In this document: positions 7,844 to 36,610 of the stretch, piece by piece
Position numbering within the stretch: the stretch's first letter is position 1
How the letters are laid out: each line of letters opens with the position of its first letter
Assembly: GCA_964596395.1 (NCBI GenBank)
Contig: CAZQSY010000001.1
Location: forward strand, 108,091-172,090
Length of the DNA stretch: 64,000 nucleotides
Reading direction: 5' to 3'
From: an uncultured Candidatus Saccharibacteria bacterium
GTDB lineage: Bacteria; Patescibacteriota; Minisyncoccia; Phycocordibacterales; UBA9973
The notes under the pieces: generated by a model
Told to the model about the DNA's origin: nothing
Seen by the model: the letters and a program-made list of their open reading frames with translations, nothing else
The model's database searches: none
Position numbers and translations under genes: made by a program

Positions 7844-8290
7844 TTAAAATGGTATATCTTCGGGATTAATGTCTTCTTCGGGATACTCTATCGCGTCGGT
7901 CTCTTCGGCGCCTTTCGCCTCCCCTGTCTTTGCGGGGCTGCTGCCTTGCCCGCCTCCGCTTCCTTTGGGCCCGAATTGCACTCTCTCGGCCACGATTTCG
8001 GTGCGGTATTTTTTCTCGCCGCTGTTTTTGTCTTCCCAGCTCCGGGTCTGCATCCTGCCTTCTACCAGCAAAGAACTTCCTTTCTTCAAATACTGCGCGA
8101 CCGTTTCTGCCTGGCGGCCGAATACTACTATGTTGTGAAATTCGGCTGATTCCTGGCGCGCGCCGTTTTTGTCTTTCCAAACGCGGTTGGTGGCGACTCC
8201 CAGCGTGCAAACCTTTACCCCCGACGGCAGGGAGCGAAGCTCGGGGTCGCGAGTGAGGTTGCCTATTACAATCGCTTTGTTTAGATACAT
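7844..8290 (-). CDS. ssb: Single-stranded DNA-binding protein
   Basis: OB fold (AIVIGNLTRDPELR...), Gly-rich linker, acidic C-terminal tail ending DIPF. Confidence 0.9.
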   Translation of the reverse strand: MYLNKAIVIGNLTRDPELRSLPSGVKVCTLGVATNRVWKDKNGARQESAEFHNIVVFGRQAETVAQYLKKGSSLLVEGRMQTRSWEDKNSGEKKYRTEIVAERVQFGPKGSGGGQGSSPAKTGEAKGAEETDAIEYPEEDINPEDIPF

Positions 8291-8328
8291 GTTGTCAATT
8301 GTTAGTTGATAAAAAAATTAATTGACAA

Positions 8329-8841
8329 TTAATTTGCCACCATTGCTTCGATTTCCTTGTCGATTTCTTCCTTGTCTATCGGGGCAGCCGCTTCGTCTTC
8401 TTTGCCGGGGACCGAAATTTTCTTCCTTATATCTCTTTGCACGAACCTCTTTGAAGCAATCGTGTTTTCCCGAAGGGTTTTAACGGTGAGAAATCTTATA
8501 ACATCCGGCTCGTCTTTAAACTTTTTCTCTATGGCCGAAATTTTCTCCGGCTCGGCTTCAAACTTAAACCAGCCGAAATAAGCGTCGTCGAAATTTTTGC
8601 GCGCGTTTTGTAAAACCTTGGATATGGTGTAGGCGAGGCGCACTTCTTTGGGCATTTCATCCGAAATAATTGCCCCACCGGTGCTCGCGACAAGCTCTTT
8701 CAGATTGCCGTATACAGCCGGCACGTTTTCGGGCGCGACAGAGGGCGCCAAAAGATAACCGATTTCGTAAATCCGGTTGTCTGTACCTTCGGTTTCCTCG
8801 GCGGAAGTGGCCGCTGCGTCTTGGTTTTCTGCTTCTGACAT
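8329..8841 (-). CDS. rpsF: 30S ribosomal protein bS6 with acidic C-terminal extension
   Basis: RIYEIGYLLAPSV... bS6 core; conserved rpsF-ssb-rpsR order; start taken at internal Met (MSEAEN), ORF track begins at 8889. Confidence 0.8.
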   Translation of the reverse strand: MSEAENQDAAATSAEETEGTDNRIYEIGYLLAPSVAPENVPAVYGNLKELVASTGGAIISDEMPKEVRLAYTISKVLQNARKNFDDAYFGWFKFEAEPEKISAIEKKFKDEPDVIRFLTVKTLRENTIASKRFVQRDIRKKISVPGKEDEAAAPIDKEEIDKEIEAMVAN

Positions 8842-9009
8842 GAGCCCTATACTAGCAAAAAGGGTAAAATAAGTAAAGATGAAAGGCAAAACCCTTCGCA
8901 GGCGTACTTTTTGGAAGGCCTCGCGCAGGCCGGCGGGCCGAGCAGTTCGCTCCGCAAGCTTGCGGAGATAGATTGCCTTACAAAAAGTATGCCAAGAACA
9001 GGGTTTTGC

Positions 9010-17536: not shown

Positions 17537-18118
17537 CTAAAGATGTGTTTCTTTCAGAGCGCTGTTTATTTCGCGAAGTATCCGCGCCCTGTTCTTCGAG
17601 GCCTCAAAAATCAAATTCTCTTCAAACGGCGACTCGGTGAGGTTGCCGATGGCCTCATTGCCTCCGCCTATGTACCCCAGCTTGTGTAAAATACGCAGCA
17701 CTATCACCGCTTCGACGCTGCCTGTTTCTTGCGGCATCGCCGATTTTTCCAAAACGCGCAACCCGCTCAAAATATCTCCGAACAAAGCCGGGTTCGGGTC
17801 CTCACCCGGCAAGAGCCGTATCAAAAGCTTCGCGATGTTCCCCATTGTCGGCAAAATTTCGGGCGCGAGCAGGCCGCAAAGCTCGTTCGTCTTTGAAGCA
17901 CTGCCTATGCGCCAGAAATCTTTCCCTTTTACCAGGTCAATCTTCACATAAGAGAAATCCTGAAGCACATAACGCAATTTTGAAGACATTTTGCGCACGC
18001 CCGAGGCCGTAGCCAAGACCAACCCCAAATCGCGGGTGCACAAGCGGTAATATTTGCCGGTCTCGCCAAAATTTCTGCTCCCCAAAACTATGCCCTCGGT
18101 GTGATAAATGTGATGCAT
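17537..18118 (-). CDS. recO: DNA repair protein RecO (short form)
   Basis: N-terminal OB-fold region EGIVLGSRNFGETGKYYRLCTRDLGLV resembles RecO; 193 aa. Confidence 0.6.
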   Translation of the reverse strand: MHHIYHTEGIVLGSRNFGETGKYYRLCTRDLGLVLATASGVRKMSSKLRYVLQDFSYVKIDLVKGKDFWRIGSASKTNELCGLLAPEILPTMGNIAKLLIRLLPGEDPNPALFGDILSGLRVLEKSAMPQETGSVEAVIVLRILHKLGYIGGGNEAIGNLTESPFEENLIFEASKNRARILREINSALKETHL

Positions 18119-18121
18119 GCG

Positions 18122-18153
18122 TTACATAATCTATTACGTAATAGATTATGTAA
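18122..18153. promoter_or_regulatory. 32-bp perfect palindrome ttacataatctattacg|cgtaatagattatgtaa, 4 bp upstream of the recO start codon
   Basis: Exact self-complementarity checked base by base; sits in the 39-bp gap between the HD-domain gene and recO. Confidence 0.5.
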
Positions 18154-18157
18154 CTAA

Positions 18158-18817
18158 TTATATAACGAAATCCCGGAGTTCTTCTATTATTGGCTTGACT
18201 GTCTCGTCGTTTATATCTTCCGGCTTGATTTTGCACTTCGCGAAAATTTGCTTTTCAATGTTTCTCAGCGACTCACACAGGGGCTCAAAATTATCTGTCG
18301 CGATGGCGTGATTCAATTCTTTTATTCTTGCCAAGTATCTCTTTCTGCCTTCCTGAATACGCTCTCCCATAGAAACCACGCCGTGCGGGCTAACCCTCAT
18401 ATCTGAATAATTGGTAATTTTCTCCGCGAAAGACCCGCTTTGTTCAACCTCCGCGGCCTTAGAAAACCCCAGATTTTCAAGAAACATTCCGATCCCTCCC
18501 GAGACCCCCATCTCTTCAGCTATTAGTTTCGTGGCCAGATACTCGTCCGCGCCATATTTTCTCACATATTCATCTTTAACCTTTTGCCAATGTTCCAGCC
18601 CTTCCGGCTCCAGGAACTCCGGGAAGGCATTTAGATTGAACTTGATTATATTTCCCATATCATGAAGCAAACATGCCGTAACAATTTCCTGTCTTGGTAA
18701 GACCTCATCGAAATTTTCGCAAACCAAATACGCCACCGCCGCCACACGTAGCATGTGCTCCTGCAAACTAGGCATAATCTTATACTCTTCGTAAATTTCA
18801 GTGATTTTTCTTGCCAC
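18158..18817 (-). CDS. HD-domain phosphohydrolase
   Basis: H...HD signature (LQEHMLRVA ... LLHDMGNIIKF). Confidence 0.6.
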   Translation of the reverse strand: MARKITEIYEEYKIMPSLQEHMLRVAAVAYLVCENFDEVLPRQEIVTACLLHDMGNIIKFNLNAFPEFLEPEGLEHWQKVKDEYVRKYGADEYLATKLIAEEMGVSGGIGMFLENLGFSKAAEVEQSGSFAEKITNYSDMRVSPHGVVSMGERIQEGRKRYLARIKELNHAIATDNFEPLCESLRNIEKQIFAKCKIKPEDINDETVKPIIEELRDFVI

Positions 18818-21800: not shown

Positions 21801-22384
21801 TCGTGCGAAGAAAGAGCCGTGCCGCAACGCGGGCACCAGGGCACCACTTTGTAGTCCTTGTATAAAAGTCCCCGTTCGTTTACTTTCTTTACGATGTTCC
21901 AAAGCGATTCAATGTAGTCATTGTGATAAGTAACGTACGGATTCTCCTGGTCAACCCAATAGCCAATACGCTCGGTAAACTTGTTCCAGAATTCCAGATA
22001 CTCCCAAACGCTTTCTTTGCATTGCTGATTAAATTTCGCGATGCCATACTCCTCGATTGCTTTTTTTGAATCAAGCCCGAGCTTTTTCTCAACCTGCAGT
22101 TCCACCGGCAAGCCGTGCGTGTCCCACCCGCCTTTTCGGCGCACATGGCATCCGCGCATGGTCTTGTACCGAGGGATGGCATCTTTGAAAGCGCGAGCTT
22201 CGAGGTGGTGAATACCCGGCTTGCCATTGGCTGTCGGCGGGCCTTCATAAAAAACGAACTCCTTTCTGCCCTCGGTTTGCTTTACCGATTTTTCAAAAAT
22301 TTTATTCTCTTTCCAAAATTCCAAAATCCGTTCTTCACGTATCGTCGCTTCACATTTTTCGATTTTTTTGCTTTCCTCGTTCAT
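18818..22384 (-). CDS. ileS: Isoleucyl-tRNA synthetase with two insertions (31-aa repeat-element-derived segment; about 190-aa histidine phosphatase domain)
   Basis: HIGH-type motif PTANGKPGIHHLEAR, WTTTPWTLPGN (CP1 start), KMSKSLGNIVDP; 1188 aa, oversized because of the insertions. Confidence 0.95.
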   Translation of the reverse strand: MNEESKKIEKCEATIREERILEFWKENKIFEKSVKQTEGRKEFVFYEGPPTANGKPGIHHLEARAFKDAIPRYKTMRGCHVRRKGGWDTHGLPVELQVEKKLGLDSKKAIEEYGIAKFNQQCKESVWEYLEFWNKFTERIGYWVDQENPYVTYHNDYIESLWNIVKKVNERGLLYKDYKVVPWCPRCGTALSSHELAQGYQDVKDLSVYVKFKIIASPRNDFLGPRVGRAESSAKNGLNQTLENHSAAPLYILAWTTTPWTLPGNVALAVGEDIDYVKIKKENEVLILAEKRLQEIQGEYQVLEKLKGKNLIGLEYEPLYPFLQNVISESEKPKLEKAYKVYPADFVTTEDGTGVVHTAVMYGQDDFELGTKIGLPKHHLVGLDGKFLSGTGFLEGRFTRDEETAVEIIKDLAHRGLLLKKEKYEHSYPYCWRCKTALIYYARDSWYIGMSKLRDELIKENEKINWEPAHIREGRFGEWLREIKDWAISRERYWGTPLPVWECEKCHKREVIGSLEELKEKTKKSGNKYFAIRHAQAEANLKGLISNKIESDNDHLTEEGKKQALDSARKLRKEDITLMISSDFLRTKETAEIILKELDLPQDKLVFDKRLREIFTGSFKGRTWREFWGDKTGEKRYFLDTDGSETQRDVKLRVSNFLYDIDKKYKNENILIVTHEGPRRLIVAGALGLNDEETIRELEASIPPVGFSEFTEFPFVPLPHNKDFELDFHRPYIDETEVVCECGGDLKRVKEVMDVWFDSGAMPFAQDHYPFESKKWVEGAGYPADYISEAIDQTRGWFYTLHAVGILMGRGKAYKNVICLGHLLDAQGKKMSKSLGNIVDPWEMIEKYGADTLRLWMYSVNQPGESKNFDEKTVRLLHQQVFGLLYNILAFYELYRDTSVEKNSQPKSGDVLDKWILARMDELTELVTRSLENYRLLEPVRGVRDFIEDLSTWYLRRSRDRMKEGDKEAKQTLYLVLKNLVKLLAPFAPFTAEDIWQKLKNEKEAESVHLAEWPKAGFKFFRFGDKEVLEKMKTVRKIVTLGLERRQYEKIKVRQPLAKIEIWKDSKLDGEYLDLVKDELNVKEVVEGTNIDENILLWTEITPELKAEGDFRELVRALQDMRKDMGLTPKDSITLYIETEKNGEELVKKFEPELLKTVLVSNLKLEKNDGQEVKAGDLAFKVKILQNK
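21642..21734. repeat. Nested inverted-repeat element, copy C, inserted in frame (93 nt) in ileS
   Basis: Perfect 16-bp outer IR gccgcggaatgatttt (21642-21657) / aaaatcattccgcggc (21719-21734); core gagtgtctggttgag ... ggccgacccgaggaccgagaaaat matches the copy-A termini; on the minus strand it encodes SPRNDFLGPRVGRAESSAKNGLNQTLENHSAA. Confidence 0.65.
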
Positions 22385-22436
22385 GACTTTCTATTCTAAA
22401 ATTCTATAGAATATTAGAATACTTTTAGTGCTAAAA

Positions 22437-22620: not shown

Positions 22621-24249
22621 TCACATCTTTTCCAATACCGGAATGCCCAAAACAGTAAGCCCGTTTTTCATAACGGTGGCAAAAGCATGGCTTAGGGCAA
22701 CTTTGTAGGGAGAGGACGGGTCTTCTGAATTAACGATTTGCTCTTTGCCGTAAAAGCTATTATACGCACGGGCAAGTTCTACCAAGTAACTAGCTATATA
22801 GTGGGGCGCGAATTCTTCCCCGGCTCTTAAGACAACCTCGGGAAAACGGTAAAGCAATCTTTCAACTTCCATCACCTGCCAATCTTGCGGAAGTCCGACT
22901 TCCGCAGAAATTTTATTTTCTTTCGCTTTTTCCAAAATAGAATTCGCGCGAGCGTAAGAGTACTGCAAATACACGCCCGAGTCGCCCTCGGTAGAAACCG
23001 ATTTTTCAATATCAAAAATTATATCCCCGCCCACGGCTTGTCGCAGAATCATGTACTTGATTGCGCCGATGGCCACCCGCTCGTCCCCTTTTACTTTTTC
23101 TTTGAGAAGATTAATCAAACTCTCGGCGGTAATAACATCGCCGGTGCGGGAACTCATCTTTCCCGTAGGTAGGCGAAGCATGCCGTGGGAAAGATGTTTT
23201 AGTTTTCCTTTGAGTTCTGGAAAAACCTCCCCGATGGCAACTTCGGTAACATCAAAAAAAGCATCCTGTTCGTTCGCGGTTATAGTTATTGACTGGTCGT
23301 AGGCGAATAAGTCCTTTTTGATTTTTGCCAGCCCGACTTCTTTGGCTTCGTAAGTGGGAAGTTTTTCGGAATTAAGAAATACTCTCGTATGCAAACCAAA
23401 TTTTTCACCCTCAAAAACAACAGCCCCTTCCGATTCTTTAAATACTTTACCTAGATTTTCTAAAACTAGTTTCTGTCCTATTTCCCCCGCTTCGCTTTCT
23501 AAAAAGTGGTGGTCGAAATGACTGTCTAGTTTTTTATAAATAGACTCAAAATATTCAAAAGAGGATTCCCTGCCAGCTTCAAATAAAAGGTTGATTTGTG
23601 AATCTGTGCCATCATAGATTTTTTTATTAATCTCAATGATTTCTTTCCTCGCACTTTCATCTTCCTCGTAAGCTTTATGACCATTGGCATACGCTACTAT
23701 AAAATTACCCGAGTGTTTCAAGAGATACCACACTGCTTTGGCCACATGCAAACCCTTGTCGCCATGATATGTGGCCGCCTTGACCTCCCCGCCACAAACT
23801 TTCACCAACCTCACTACCGCTTCGCCGATAGCATTGTTCATTAAATGCCCGATATGAAATTCTTTAAACGGGTTGGGCTGGGTGTGCTCTATAAAAAATT
23901 TCCTTCCGGAAAAAATATCACTCGCCCCAAAATTTCCATTTTCTGTAATTTTCTTTACGCTATCGGCAAAAAATTCTTTAGACAGATGAAAATTTATGAA
24001 CCCCGGCCCGGCAACTTGAATTTCCTGAATTTCGGGAAATCCACCCTGAGCTTGCCGAAGGGTCATTACGATTTTTTCCGCCAACTCTTTCGGATTCGTT
24101 TCTAGCTTTTTTGCCAGAACCATCGCTACGTTACTAGAGTAATCGCCGTTTTTGATATCTTCAGGGTGTTCAATGGCAAAATCCACATCTTCTTTTATTC
24201 CAAGATTTTTTAAAGCACTTTGTATTATTTCTTTTATCTTATCCTGCAT
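22621..24249 (-). CDS. argS: Arginyl-tRNA synthetase
   Basis: HIGH-type motif in FIEHTQPNPFKEFHIGHLMN; ArgRS N-terminal add-on and DALR-type anticodon-binding C-terminus; ORF track start 24273 overlaps dut, internal Met at 24249 chosen. Confidence 0.9.
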   Translation of the reverse strand: MQDKIKEIIQSALKNLGIKEDVDFAIEHPEDIKNGDYSSNVAMVLAKKLETNPKELAEKIVMTLRQAQGGFPEIQEIQVAGPGFINFHLSKEFFADSVKKITENGNFGASDIFSGRKFFIEHTQPNPFKEFHIGHLMNNAIGEAVVRLVKVCGGEVKAATYHGDKGLHVAKAVWYLLKHSGNFIVAYANGHKAYEEDESARKEIIEINKKIYDGTDSQINLLFEAGRESSFEYFESIYKKLDSHFDHHFLESEAGEIGQKLVLENLGKVFKESEGAVVFEGEKFGLHTRVFLNSEKLPTYEAKEVGLAKIKKDLFAYDQSITITANEQDAFFDVTEVAIGEVFPELKGKLKHLSHGMLRLPTGKMSSRTGDVITAESLINLLKEKVKGDERVAIGAIKYMILRQAVGGDIIFDIEKSVSTEGDSGVYLQYSYARANSILEKAKENKISAEVGLPQDWQVMEVERLLYRFPEVVLRAGEEFAPHYIASYLVELARAYNSFYGKEQIVNSEDPSSPYKVALSHAFATVMKNGLTVLGIPVLEKM

Positions 24250-24250
24250 T

Positions 24251-24673
24251 TCATTTTCTTCCGGTTGAACCAAACGCGCTCAAACCGCGAGAAGAATCTG
24301 AAAGTTCATCCGCTTCTTCAAGCTCGACAATTTCAACCGGATAAATTATCAACTGAGCCACTTTGTCTCCTATCTCGACAGTATAAGGCTTGTCGGATAA
24401 ATTAACTAGGTGAGTGTTGTACTCACCCCGAAACCCGGCATCGAAAACGCCGCCCATGGTGTGCAGTCCAGCTTTGGAAATACTGCTTTTATCTTTCACC
24501 ACAGCCGCGTAACCAGCCGGAAATTCAAGGGCGAAACCGTGGAAAAATCGATGGTGCCCCATCGGGGGGATGGTAACTTCTTCCATCGCATACATATCCA
24601 TACCTACATCTCCCGGATGGGCATATTTGGGCAACTTCGCGTCTTTATGCAATTTTTTTACTTTGATTTTCAT
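24251..24673 (-). CDS. dut: dUTP diphosphatase
   Basis: dUTPase motifs: AGYAAVVKDKSSISKAGL, GVFDAGFRGE, C-terminal RGLSAFGSTG. Confidence 0.85.
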   Translation of the reverse strand: MKIKVKKLHKDAKLPKYAHPGDVGMDMYAMEEVTIPPMGHHRFFHGFALEFPAGYAAVVKDKSSISKAGLHTMGGVFDAGFRGEYNTHLVNLSDKPYTVEIGDKVAQLIIYPVEIVELEEADELSDSSRGLSAFGSTGRK

Positions 24674-26550: not shown

Positions 26551-26578
26551 GACATTCTCTGCCATGGCAGAATTTGTC
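26551..26578. promoter_or_regulatory. Composite palindrome gacattc-TCTGCCATGGCAGA-atttgtc upstream of PaaX-like regulator gene 1
   Basis: 14-bp perfect palindrome 26559-26572 with partially complementary flanks; lies in the divergent promoter region between the ligT-like gene and 26609..27088. Confidence 0.45.
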
Positions 26579-26608
26579 CTATTGTTGCTTTTTGGCTATA
26601 ATCAAACT

Positions 26609-27088
26609 ATGCCCATCGCAAGCGAAATACTAAAAGAACTGTGGAACACAGAGCTAAAATGCAAAGGAGCACCTGTGAACATTTTTGGCATTCCACGTTT
26701 TGGGAAATACCCTGTCGGGAGCATCCGAAGAACTATAGACCGTTTGAAGGAAAGAGGTGTGTTGGAAAAAGAATTAGGTGGGATTGTACTATCAAGACAC
26801 GGAATAAAATACGCGAGAAAAAAAATTGATTCACTGAAACAGTTTGAAAAACCGAAAGGGATTTCAAAAGAGAGAACTCTGCTTCTGATGTTTGATATAC
26901 CCACGGGAAAGAAAGGAGAAAGGGAGTGGTTGCGGTGGCACTTGAAAAAATTCAATTACACGATGGTTCAGAAAAGCGTCTGGGTTGGGCCATGGCCGTT
27001 ACCGAAAGATTTCAAGGAGTATTTGGCAAAAATAAAGCTGGACAAACACATTAAAATTTTCAAACTGGCCAAATCGTATGTAAAATGA
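26609..27088 (+). CDS. Small PaaX-like regulator (N-terminal wHTH-like region + C-terminal Cas2-fold-like/PaaX_C-like region), paralog 1
   Basis: Start set at MPIASEILKELW by alignment to paralog 34384..34866; shared motifs PVNIFGIPRF, MFDIPTGKKGEREWLRWHLKKFNYTMVQKSVWVGPWPLPKDF; C-terminal pattern resembles the PaaX C-terminal domain. Confidence 0.55.
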   Translation: MPIASEILKELWNTELKCKGAPVNIFGIPRFGKYPVGSIRRTIDRLKERGVLEKELGGIVLSRHGIKYARKKIDSLKQFEKPKGISKERTLLLMFDIPTGKKGEREWLRWHLKKFNYTMVQKSVWVGPWPLPKDFKEYLAKIKLDKHIKIFKLAKSYVK

Positions 27089-27118
27089 GACACTTTCTGC
27101 CATAGCAGAAAGTGTCTC
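27087..27118 (+). terminator. 14-bp perfect stem / 4-nt loop hairpin gagacactttctgc-cata-gcagaaagtgtctc followed by a U-run; related in sequence to the 26551-26578 palindrome
   Basis: Arms are exact reverse complements; starts at the stop codon of 26609..27088; followed by gtgtatttttta. Confidence 0.6.
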
Positions 27119-34281: not shown

Positions 34282-34316
34282 GCTCGCGATTATAGCAAAA
34301 AAACATCACGTACGCC

Positions 34317-34358
34317 AACGTCAATATACTCTGCGATAGCAGAAAAAATTGACACTGA
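34317..34358. promoter_or_regulatory. 42-bp composite palindrome aacgtcaat-atac-tctgcgatagcaga-aaaa-attgacact upstream of PaaX-like regulator gene 2
   Basis: Outer IR gtcaat/attgac enclosing inner tctgc-gata-gcaga; direct repeat of 34869-34910. Confidence 0.4.
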
Positions 34359-34383
34359 TAAGAACAAAGAATATAATACAAAC

Positions 34384-34866
34384 ATGTCTCTCGCACGAGA
34401 AATTATAAAAGAACTCTTAAAACCTACCCTGAATTATAAAGGTATGCCAGTGAATATATTTGGCATACCGAGATTCAGGAAACATTCCTTTGGTTCACTT
34501 AGAACAACTGTCTGGGAAATGAAAAGAAAAGGATTGATAGAAAAGCGAGGAAGCGGGTGGTATTCCACACCCGCTGGGAAAAAATTCGTGCAGAGGAAAT
34601 ACGAGTCACTCGAACAATTCTCAAATAGCTTTGCGAAAGGCACGCCAAAAAACCTTTTAGTTATGTACGATATACCTGAATATAAAAAAGCAGAAAGAGA
34701 ATGGTTTCGCTGGCATTTGAAAAAATTCGGCTATCTGATGATTCAAAGAAGTGTATGGATTGGTCCTTCTCCTTTGCCGAAAGATTTTTTAGACTACGTG
34801 GAAAAAATAAAACTGAAAAGAAACATAAAAACTTTTAGGCTGGCAAAACCGTATAAGGCAAAATAA
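34384..34866 (+). CDS. Small PaaX-like regulator, paralog 2
   Basis: 160 aa; clear paralog of 26609..27088 (MPVNIFGIPRF, LLVMYDIPEYKKAEREWFRWHLKKFGYLMIQRSVWIGPSPLPKDF). Confidence 0.55.
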   Translation: MSLAREIIKELLKPTLNYKGMPVNIFGIPRFRKHSFGSLRTTVWEMKRKGLIEKRGSGWYSTPAGKKFVQRKYESLEQFSNSFAKGTPKNLLVMYDIPEYKKAEREWFRWHLKKFGYLMIQRSVWIGPSPLPKDFLDYVEKIKLKRNIKTFRLAKPYKAK

Positions 34867-34868
34867 AC

Positions 34869-34910
34869 AAACGTCAATGAATCTTGCTATCGCGTAAAAT
34901 ATTGACACTC
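34869..34910. repeat. 42-bp composite palindrome aacgtcaat-gaa-tcttgctatcgcg-taaaat-attgacact downstream of regulator gene 2
   Basis: Same outer IR gtcaat/attgac as 34317-34358; inner part is a degenerate, inverted version of gcgatagca. Confidence 0.4.
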
Positions 34911-34951
34911 AAACATTCTTCTTAAACATCCTCGGAAAATAGTTAGGGGGC

Positions 34952-36610
34952 TTACAAAATATCTATCACCCGAAGCCGTAATTCTTCCCTGCCGCCGAAG
35001 CGGGATAGGTCGAGAGAGGCCAAAAGGTTCACTCGCGAGCCGAGAGTGACGGGGGTCTTGAAAGAATCGCCGTTTGAAAAAAAGGAAACAGCTTTTACTC
35101 CGCTTTTGCCCGAACCGGAGAAAGTTATCTCTAGATGTTCCCCGCCGTTCTTGCCGAATTTTTTTATATTTTCCACTTTCACGCCTTCAAAAAGAAAAAC
35201 CGGCTTGGGGTTACCCAGACCGAAGGGAGCGAGCTTGGATATCTCTTTCCAGTTTTTCATATTCACCGCCTCCAGGCCGGATTTTATGTCGTACGGAACT
35301 CCTTCTTCCTTCTTTTCCCGTTTAACTTTCGTAAAAGAGAAGCAAAGCGCTTCTTCCAAAGAATGGATTTTCTCGCTTCGCACTGTAAAACCGCCGGCCA
35401 GCTCGTGCCCGCCGAATTCCGAAAAAAATTCTCTCGTTTCCTGCATCAGTTCAACAACTGAAACCGAGCCGTCGCTCCGGCAGGATCCTTTGATTAAATC
35501 ATTCTCGTCCCGCCCCCACACAAAAACCGGCTTCTTGTATTGGTCTTTCATCTTGCCCGCCACCAACCCCAAAACCCCTACCCGCCACACGGGGTTACCG
35601 ATTACGAGCACTTCTTTCAAATTTTCTGCTTCCCTTGCCTCAAGTTTCTTGTGGACTTCGCGAACAATGCTCGTGACAACTGTTTTTCTGTCGTCATTTA
35701 TTTTGGACAAACGAGCCGCGAGCGCGCCCGCTTCTCCATCGTCTGAAGTGGCCAAAAGTTCGTAGGCAAGACGGGGACTATCCATGCGGGAAGCGGCATT
35801 CAACCGCGGGGTGAGCATAAAGCCGATGTCGTCTTCGCTAACATGTCTCTGTTCGATGTAAAGCTTCGAAAAAATTTTTTGTAAACCGGGACGTGGGGAT
35901 TTTCTTAGAACCTTCATACCGAAATAAGCAATAGCTCTGTTTTCTCCGGTGAGCGGGACCTGGTCGGAAAGCGTAGCGAGGCCCGCCATATCCAAGAGCC
36001 ATTTTTCCCACCCTTCGCCTATTTTATAGAATTCGCCGTATTTTTTTATGAATCCCTGAATAAACTTGAAAACAACGCCGGCGCCGCACAGCATCTTTTC
36101 GGGATAACCGTCGACTTTCGGATTCAGAATCGCGCAAGCTCTAGGTAACTCGGCGGGCGGTATATGGTGATCGGTGACTATCGTGTCGATATTTAAAACC
36201 TTCGCCTGCGCAATTTCGGAAACGGCTGTGGTGCCCAAATCAACGGTTATTATGAGCCGGGCTCCTTTACCCGCGAATTCTTTAATGGCGGCGAGGTTTA
36301 AACCGTATCCTTCGGAATTTCTCTCGGGGATATACACTTCGTAATTTTCAAAGCCGATTCTTTTAAAAAGGTCCCTCAACATCACCGCTCCGGGAATGCC
36401 GTCGCAATCATAATCGGCGTATATTATGATTTTTTCCTTGGCCTCAACCGCCTCGAAAAGCCGTACGCAGGCATGCTCCATATCCCTCATTAAAAAAGGG
36501 TCGTGAATGTCGCGCCTGTATTCGGGGTTCAAAAAGGCCTCGGCTTCCGCCTCGGCAGTAATTCCCCTTCTCGCAAGCAATTCGCCGAGCAACTCCCCGT
36601 ATTTTTGCAT
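34952..36610 (-). CDS. recJ: Single-stranded-DNA-specific exonuclease RecJ
   Basis: DHH motifs ([19 protein letters not shown]), DHHA1 region, C-terminal OB-like domain. Confidence 0.9.

Follow-up and report, generated by a model that had tools for sequence, protein, structure and literature searches.

The systems closest to the one described here are the PaaX-type repressors and the REP/RAYT elements. The operator of E. coli PaaX has the form TGATTC(N27)GAATCA, and the protein represses its own gene by steric hindrance of RNA polymerase (PMC9493321). RAYT genes are short, single-copy, vertically inherited and flanked by their cognate repeats, with one repeat family for each paralog (PMC3337134). 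We analyzed a 64-kb stretch of DNA from an uncultured Candidatus Saccharibacteria bacterium (contig CAZQSY010000001.1, positions 108,091 to 172,090; hereafter the window), in which a short gene, paralog 1, encodes a predicted DNA-binding protein and is bracketed upstream and downstream by two copies of a long palindrome. A related gene in the same window, paralog 2, is bracketed by palindromes of its own. Comparison with homologous loci suggests that each protein would recognize the palindromes that flank its gene.

Like PaaX (8a39, 3l09, 3kfw), the protein has a winged helix at the N terminus and, after it, a Cas2-like domain, which is the central domain and the dimerization module of PaaX. 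Both systems have widely spaced inverted hexamers, N27 apart in E. coli PaaX and 22 bp apart here, and in both the site overlaps the regulator's own promoter, an arrangement that leads to autorepression in PaaX. In contrast to PaaX, the protein is about half the size and has no PaaX_C ligand domain, and there are no paa genes nearby. The palindromes also differ from the PaaX operator, as an invariant TCTGC-N4-GCAGA core makes 34-40 bp into one continuous palindrome, and as a second copy lies past the stop codon, with more at gene 3' ends and in coding sequences.

With REP/RAYT the locus shares the bracketing by cognate palindromes, the single palindrome family per paralog, and repeats that lie mostly just 3' of genes. 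However, the protein matches no IS200/IS605-like transposase family and carries a conserved RWHLKK rather than an H-hydrophobic-H motif. REP/RAYT repeats number tens to hundreds of dispersed copies per genome. The copy number here appears low, as about 400 kb of flanks contained 5-6 non-flanking sites, or about one per 70-80 kb. Many non-flanking sites are positionally conserved between genera, and the recognition code points to a winged helix reading a duplex.

Rickettsia palindromic elements are selfish palindromes inserted in frame in protein genes, and palindromes are found here in the same way within loops of conserved proteins (MiaA, ArgRS and a reverse transcriptase (RT)). They differ from the Rickettsia elements in being much shorter (36-42 bp), in occupying the same insertion site in many genomes with arms that follow each genome's family, and in being tied to a specific predicted DNA-binding protein. 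Members of the Cas2/VapD family differ in that the domain here is fused to a winged helix; the window has no array, and the flanking genes examined do not include cas1. Lrp/AsnC proteins are of similar size, are autoregulated palindrome binders that likewise have two domains (a winged helix and, in their case, a ferredoxin-like RAM domain), and give weak fold matches (2p6t, 8q90); however, there is no sequence relationship to them, and the C-terminal domain matches Cas2/PaaX_M and not RAM. Our literature searches returned no paper joining PaaX with Cas2, and none tying PaaX or palindromic elements to Patescibacteria. Comparison of sequences shows that the locus represents a conserved protein-plus-palindrome system for which we found no prior description. 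Its known part would be a PaaX-type repressor with widely spaced inverted half-sites, while the unexplained layer of dispersed, partly coding palindromes that change with the protein could be new.

Flanking palindromes and the predicted recognition helix

The two paralog 1 sites share the frame GACA-N3-TCTGCCATRGCAGA-N3-TGTC, at 26551-26578 and 27089-27116. Written out, the upstream site is GACATTC-TCTGCCATGGCAGA-ATTTGTC (frame GACA-N3-TCTGCCATGGCAGA-N3-TGTC). A motif search of all 64 kb found no palindrome-family site apart from the four that flank the two paralogs. With up to two mismatches allowed, TCTGCCATRGCAGA gave 10 strand-matches against 0.58 expected, a number reached in 0/100 shuffles; CTGC-N4-GCAG occurred just three times, on every occasion beside either paralog, and GACA-N20-TGTC was confined to the two flanks of paralog 1. 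The original prediction had located the paralog 1 gene and its sites correctly, in coordinates and in sequence, and in labeling the gene as one of a set of paralogs it had anticipated the second copy. The outer arms of the paralog 2 sites (GTCAAT...ATTGAC) are unlike those of paralog 1; they are retained in the downstream copy (14/16 arm identity to the upstream copy), where the core has decayed.

Homologs are numerous (980 for paralog 1 and 398 for paralog 2 in a word-indexed search; 1074 clusters at 50% identity in a profile search at E<=1e-10) and, wherever the source names an organism, they belong to the Patescibacteria/Paceibacteria lineage. They are 65-82% identical across genera, with several paralogs per genome. 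Our comparison set comprised about 200 related loci overall, of which 80 were genome loci that we fetched and combined with the window's two genes to give 82 loci from Paceibacteria. A site was recognizable on both sides of the gene in 70/82 of these. The upstream dyad lies 44-48 nt from the ATG in type-1 loci and 35-36 nt from it in many type-2-like loci, and the downstream dyad lies 8-100 nt past the stop codon. Upstream-to-downstream distances range from 538 to 623 bp with clusters near 542 and 565 bp. We do not claim looping from this phasing, and a strict looping geometry is lacking because the distance from the stop codon to the downstream site varies over 8-100 bp.

The palindrome cores fall into classes (CCATGG, CACCTG/CAGGTG and CGATAG/CTATCG), and the outer arms vary from genome to genome and also among paralogs that share a genome. 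At a single gene, the two copies nevertheless matched at 13.2/16 arm positions, against 7.3/16 between loci (0/5000 permutations). Sites are concentrated at the gene, with 120/126 of those in 470 kb around homologs flanking it. Some loci have two palindromes 87-95 bp apart (L087 at 2837/2924, L132 at 9831/9918 and L184 at 311/406). The second palindrome of L087 and of L132 shares the TTTCTGC-N4-GCAGAAA core with the first, but its arms are G+C-rich and unrelated. The L184 pair is found 200-290 bp upstream of the homolog and not at -45.

Arm sequence varies together with the protein. Among 71 distinct proteins, each paired with its upstream site, arm bases 12-17 bp from the dyad covaried with residues 36, 37, 40, 41 and 45, all inside the predicted recognition helix. 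The strongest pairings of arm position (bp from the dyad) with residue were 12 with R45, 14 with R41, 15 with G37, 16 with R40, and 17 with residues 37, 40 and 41. Helices with R37, R40 and T41 accompany the arm TGACAC, those with Q40 and V41 the arm GAAAC, with Q40 and I41 G(G/A)CAAC, with Y40 and N41 CT(A/C)TAC, and with G37, R40 and N41 TGGTAC; R41 goes with GGAC, in window paralog 1 and in L022. A partial Mantel test of arms against six helix residues, given the rest of the protein, yielded r = 0.48 (0/2000 permutations), and among protein pairs 60-75% identical elsewhere the arm identity climbed from 0.47 to 0.96 with helix identity. This covariation of arm bases with recognition-helix residues is the main evidence, and it supports a protein that would read the arms directly as double-stranded DNA. 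Together with the bracketing and the matching of arms within a locus, it makes it very probable that the palindromes are the protein's own binding sites, as had been predicted.

Protein fold, promoters and gene neighborhood

The paralog 1 protein matched the Pfam family PaaX_M (PF20803, 'PaaX central Cas2-like domain') at residues 92-153 with E=1.1e-12, and fell slightly under the cut-off for Pfam Cas2. An AlphaFold2 model built from 105 homologs (pLDDT 84.7) has a helix at residues 3-13, a beta-hairpin, a helix at 36-48, a two-strand wing at 52-61, a helix at 63-73 and a C-terminal beta-alpha-beta-beta-alpha-beta domain. Foldseek ranked the PaaX-like structures 3kfw and 8a39 on top, with Cas2 next. 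Residues 29-79 aligned with the winged-helix domains of BlaI/MecI, S19e and CggR_N in weak profile matches, and the PaaX N-terminal domain also gave a weak match (E 0.2); we take helix 36-48 to be the recognition helix because the winged-helix profile alignments place it there. The expectation of a small PaaX-like protein with a winged helix and a Cas2-like part is thus borne out by Pfam, by the model and by the structural matches.

The protein is not PaaX proper. Pfam found no match to the C-terminal PaaX ligand (aryl-CoA) domain in paralog 1, which ends at residue 159, and the two paralogs scored 16.4 and 18.7 bits against the PaaX equivalog TIGR02277, far below its cut-off of 264.55 for a full-length match. 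Nor does the model resemble a Cas2 of 90-100 amino acids, as it predicts a winged-helix fusion. Public records often name homologs 'CRISPR-associated endonuclease Cas2', others being hypothetical or 'PaaX'. The Cas2 names arise because the NCBIfam cas2 equivalog, with a cut-off of 24.5, is passed by 0.3 bit (scores of 24.8 and 30.0 for the two paralogs, margins of 0.3 and 5.5 bits), and this naming is a systematic mis-annotation. There is no CRISPR array in the 64-kb window, and no cas1 or other cas gene was seen among the flanking genes examined. The Cas2-like domain is highly conserved. Many of its residues are invariant, among them D96, a putative counterpart of the catalytic Asp of Cas2; when the isolated domain was searched by sequence against the PDB, only noise was returned.

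In both paralogs the upstream palindrome supplies the -35 box through its right arm, and 6 nt separate the end of the -10 box from the ATG (Table 1). Since the -10 box ends so close to the ATG, both mRNAs are probably leaderless. The loci compared share this geometry: 34 have a perfect TATAAT, and in 36 the gap before the ATG measures 6-7 nt. An upstream site that overlaps the -35 box of the gene's own promoter would probably lead to autorepression, and the autoregulation proposed in the original prediction fits this arrangement. At paralog 2, the divergent promoter serves deoxyribosyltransferase-like, RNase H and comEC genes.

Downstream, paralog 1 is convergent with a Nudix gene and paralog 2 with recJ. 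The paralog 1 downstream site forms a 14-bp perfect stem with a 4-nt loop (-24.2 kcal/mol as an RNA hairpin), has the G+C-containing stem-loop and T tract of an intrinsic terminator, and scores as terminator-like on both strands, which agrees with its earlier description as a 14-bp-stem terminator. The paralog 2 downstream site has lost the stem core and does not score as terminator-like. Scans of the window with Rfam and for tRNAs, and an Rfam E-value scan of 34860-35700, gave no matches. Across loci, T tracts beside the stems were enriched in all site classes, at 4.0-4.4 T per 8 nt (about 2.5 expected), measured from position 18. This count supersedes one begun past the fully extended stem, by which only about 20% of downstream sites were terminator-like. 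By the count from position 18, 29/80 downstream sites were T-rich on both sides and 55/80 had at least 5 T in 8 nt on at least one side. Because the enrichment occurs at every site class, a terminator function is neither restricted to downstream sites nor excluded. Mismatches of the G-T and A-C kinds on the sense strand stood at 38:21 in downstream sites as opposed to 24:26, a weak RNA-hairpin signal confined to the former.

The genes around the two paralogs in the window are tmk, dut, Nudix, SHMT, comEC, RNase H and recJ. In other genomes, type-1 loci neighbor tmk (13 loci), dut (10) and SHMT (14), and type-2 loci have comEC about 1 kb away (12). Viral contigs contained no homolog and one site only. 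The suggestion that the locus is a mobile regulator cassette did not hold up, as type-1 genes keep tmk/dut and SHMT beside them from genus to genus, type-2 genes keep comEC, and viral contigs lack the gene; this conserved synteny disfavors mobility.

Table 1. Positions of the paralogs, palindromes and promoters in the window, and related loci that carry in-frame insertions
Feature	Position or loci	Strand	Remarks
Paralog 1 gene	26609..27088	+	159 aa; ATG at 26609, TGA at 27086-27088; winged helix (recognition helix ~residues 36-48), Cas2-like/PaaX_M domain (89-152)
Paralog 1 upstream composite palindrome	26551..26578	.	proposed operator; GACATTCTCTGCCATGGCAGAATTTGTC; dyad 44 nt 5' of ATG
Paralog 1 promoter	26574..26602	+	TTGTCC-17-TATAAT, 10/12 match
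Paralog 1 downstream palindrome	27087..27118	.	GAGACACTTTCTGC-CATA-GCAGAAAGTGTCTC; overlaps TGA stop; between convergent genes
Divergent promoter at paralog 2	34289..34318	-	TTGGCG-18-TGcTATAAT; abuts left arm of upstream palindrome
Paralog 2 upstream palindrome	34320..34353	.	GTCAAT-N4-TCTGCGATAGCAGA-N4-ATTGAC
Paralog 2 promoter	34349..34377	+	TTGACA-17-TATAAT, 12/12 match
Paralog 2 gene	34384..34866	+	160 aa, 52% identity to paralog 1
Paralog 2 downstream palindrome	34873..34906	.	GTCAAT-N4-CTTGCTATCGCGTA-N4-ATTGAC; between convergent paralog 2 and recJ
miaA insertions	L085, L095, L097, L108, L113, L118, L121, L135, L136, L140, L159, L167, L170, L176, L192		
RT insertions	L089, L124, L138, L178		
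argS insertions	L001, L150, L156, L157, L187		

Palindromes away from the gene

A metagenome scan with the motif CAAACTCTGC-N4-GCAGAGTTTG returned 120 loci with 100 evaluable sites, of which 40/100 flanked a homolog and 60/100 lay elsewhere. The original prediction was to be abandoned if the palindrome family proved ubiquitous and not enriched near this gene family. The family does occur apart from the gene, as the 60 sites show, but it is strongly enriched beside it, as seen in the 470 kb around homologs. Intergenic non-flanking sites mostly lie 17-65 nt past stop codons; we counted 38 in tandem gaps, five in convergent and only three in divergent ones. One recurrent host, at its 3' end, is a gene for a Zn-ribbon-rich protein of 565-579 amino acids (10 loci); further recurrent hosts are LeuRS, PGK, Nudix, ATP synthase epsilon, UvrA, ABC-F ATPase and a DEAD helicase. 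We ruled out that the gene convergent with paralog 2 is this Zn-ribbon protein, as it is recJ.

Other sites are intragenic and in frame, encoding (D/E)TNSAMAEFV(S/A), always in the TNSAMAEFV reading frame, in loops of MiaA, ArgRS and an RT of the diversity-generating type. They were found in MiaA (18-19 loci), ArgRS (5), RT (4) and a pseudouridine synthase, and the RT host has an LGxxxSQ motif, as in diversity-generating retroelements. Compared with the solved structure 2qgn, MiaA carries the segment as an insertion, and the window's own ArgRS (22621..24273, minus strand) is without the TNSAMAEFV segment. At the one MiaA position the arms differ by genome (GATAC, GAAAC, GACAC, GCTAC, TCTAC, GGTAC, GAGAC, ACTAC), and the same arm classes flank the genes of type 1. 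In loci that have both a homolog and a non-flanking site, the arms usually agree (L017, L029, L100, L128, L156). In one metagenome, several loci also carried identical 40-mers, which formed two discrete subtypes corresponding to arms of the upstream and the downstream type. Because palindromes recur past housekeeping stop codons and inside miaA, argS and the RT gene, the protein would be a multi-site DNA binder and not a purely local autoregulator.

Two further palindromic features of the window touch on this family. Between rpsF (8329..8889, minus strand) and ssb (7844..8290, minus strand), the hairpin TTGTCAATT-N17-AATTGACAA at 8294-8326 has paralog-2-type arms (GTCAAT/ATTGAC) without the core. 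It may be a degenerate paralog-2 site ahead of ssb, which would suit the DNA-uptake and DNA-processing neighborhood of comEC, RNase H and recJ. A perfect 34-bp palindrome, GTTACATAATCTATTAC|GTAATAGATTATGTAAC at 18121-18154, fills the 39-bp gap between the stop codon of 18158..18817 (minus strand) and the ATG of a RecO-like gene (17537..18118, minus strand). Its arm GTTACA resembles some type-2-like arms and the TCTGC core is lacking; perhaps it represents a third family, with a cognate protein encoded beyond the window.

Preferred reading and alternatives

The reading we prefer, and to which we give somewhat better than even chances, is a minimal PaaX-type dimeric DNA binder that represses its own leaderless promoter and binds further sites at gene ends and within genes. 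The protein, with a winged helix-turn-helix joined to a Cas2-like domain and no PaaX C-terminal ligand domain, would bind as a dimer to the 34-40 bp palindrome, where the recognition helix (~residues 36-45) of each subunit would read the hexamer 12-17 bp from the dyad. With the upstream copy lying over the -35 box of its own gene's promoter and against the promoter of the divergent neighbor, bound protein would be expected to repress its own gene, and probably also the divergent genes for nucleotide salvage or DNA uptake. The downstream copy would be a second binding site of the same protein. When transcribed, it would fold as a long hairpin with flanking T tracts, and it could act as a boundary element between convergent genes, either terminating transcription or serving as a protein roadblock, or both. 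For the non-promoter sites away from the gene, which as RNA would likewise form strong hairpins, we also favor a role as boundaries or roadblocks. As each paralog has its own arm sequence, the paralogs would be insulated from one another. Binding, repression and a roadblock or termination role are what we infer from the sequence anatomy, its conservation, the arm matching and covariation, and the fold.

Several observations sit less easily with this reading. The support for binding is comparative throughout, and the covariation test is phylogeny-corrected only in part. The invariant inner core TCTGC-N4-GCAGA has no assigned reader, and conservation of the Cas2-like domain, in which D96 and many other residues are invariant, goes far beyond the needs of a simple dimerization module. 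Most sites away from the gene lie past stop codons or within genes and not in promoters, and a classical repressor needs none such. The stems are also unexpectedly symmetrical. Complementarity at positions 14-17 from the dyad is 92-99% with all four pair types (expected 31-46%), remains at 70-76% at positions 18-20 though base identity there is unfixed, which is more perfect than in usual operators, and is at chance level from position 22 outward. Positions 11-17 almost never differ between the two sites of a locus; for position 18 we counted 23 compensatory differences, 15 identities and 18 cases with one site unpaired. Such symmetry, beyond what a dimer needs, points to selection for a hairpin or to its mechanical generation. 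Quasi-palindromes tend to perfect themselves by template switching, and this process, or selection for an RNA or DNA hairpin, is a possible cause of the excess.

These points bear on a different explanation, in which the palindromes are a dispersed REP/RAYT-like repeat family and the Cas2-like protein is not a transcription factor but a cognate nuclease or recombinase that copies, corrects or maintains them, the two flanking copies being master copies or former element ends. We consider this unlikely, yet it is the serious rival and accounts better for the bracketing, the one family per paralog, the dispersed 40-mers in two subtypes, the in-frame insertions and the strong conservation of Cas2-type residues. 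The short (~480 bp), vertically inherited gene, the mostly extragenic position of the repeats shortly past stop codons, the compensatory stem changes, and the absence of the in-frame segment from the window's ArgRS and the solved MiaA structure are also in its favor. However, there is no HUH or Tyr transposase fold or motif in a protein whose fold is Cas2/PaaX-like with a winged helix, the copy number looks low, with no non-flanking site in the other 63 kb of the window, and the helix-to-arm code indicates major-groove reading of duplex DNA. Sites also hold the same orthologous positions in many genomes, in miaA and at the 3' end of the 565-579-aa gene, which argues for long persistence rather than hopping. 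A more far-reaching version would make the winged-helix-targeted Cas2-like protein the partner of self-propagating or self-correcting palindromes of 34-40 bp, a non-HUH system in the style of REPIN/RAYT, found at gene ends and in frame in miaA and argS, with arms rewritten genome-wide when the recognition helix changes; this we hold to be a shade more doubtful still.

That the protein organizes the chromosome like ParB/parS, Noc, SlmA or MatP, with a dozen or so scattered palindromes that structure or mark the nucleoid and autoregulation as a secondary matter, appears to us distinctly improbable. The sites are indeed few, long, highly conserved, often intragenic or at gene ends and at the same positions across genomes, and the protein, so similar across genera, has no ligand domain; but the upstream site has a fixed promoter geometry, and the two paralogs of one genome have separate site sets, each beside functionally coherent neighbors. 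If the palindromes were simply intrinsic terminators or RNA hairpins without any relation to the protein, and the bracketing a coincidence of gene boundaries, this would explain the bidirectional terminator score of the paralog 1 downstream site, the T tracts beside stems and the excess of G-T over A-C mismatches in downstream sites. This reading is very unlikely, because the upstream copy lies between divergent promoters with nothing to terminate, the arms covary with the recognition helix, the paralog 2 downstream site keeps its arms without a stem core or a terminator-like score, and the motif occurs in 64 kb only at the two paralogs. Least credible of all is that the gene is a mobile regulator cassette or a genuine CRISPR Cas2, which the repeat on either side of a single gene and the barely passed cas2 equivalog might suggest. 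We rejected both on the synteny, kept in 12-14 genomes per type, and the missing CRISPR context (neither an array in the window nor cas1 among the flanking genes examined). The paralogs, only 52% identical, have different sites, there are no copies in viral contigs, and the protein is a winged-helix fusion larger than Cas2.

Patescibacteria have tiny genomes with few recognizable regulators, and this protein has more than 1000 sequence clusters in public data. The comparative data supply a predicted operator for each paralog, and the natural specificity code, from five helix residues to six base pairs, could serve as a model for the joint change of a regulator and all its sites. The non-promoter targets (gene ends, miaA, argS and the diversity-generating RT) point either to transcription boundaries that the protein reinforces or to a new system for handling repeats, and recognition of the family would correct a recurrent 'Cas2' annotation error.

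Two minor observations concern other sequences. Just 5' of the ileS start codon at 22384, the window has a 30-bp near-palindrome (TATTCTAAAATTCTATAGAATATTAGAATA, 22392-22421) that is unrelated in sequence to the palindromes studied here. In a related organism (L119, 2139-5162), LeuRS contains an inserted NUDIX domain (residues 425-521) that follows its editing domain.

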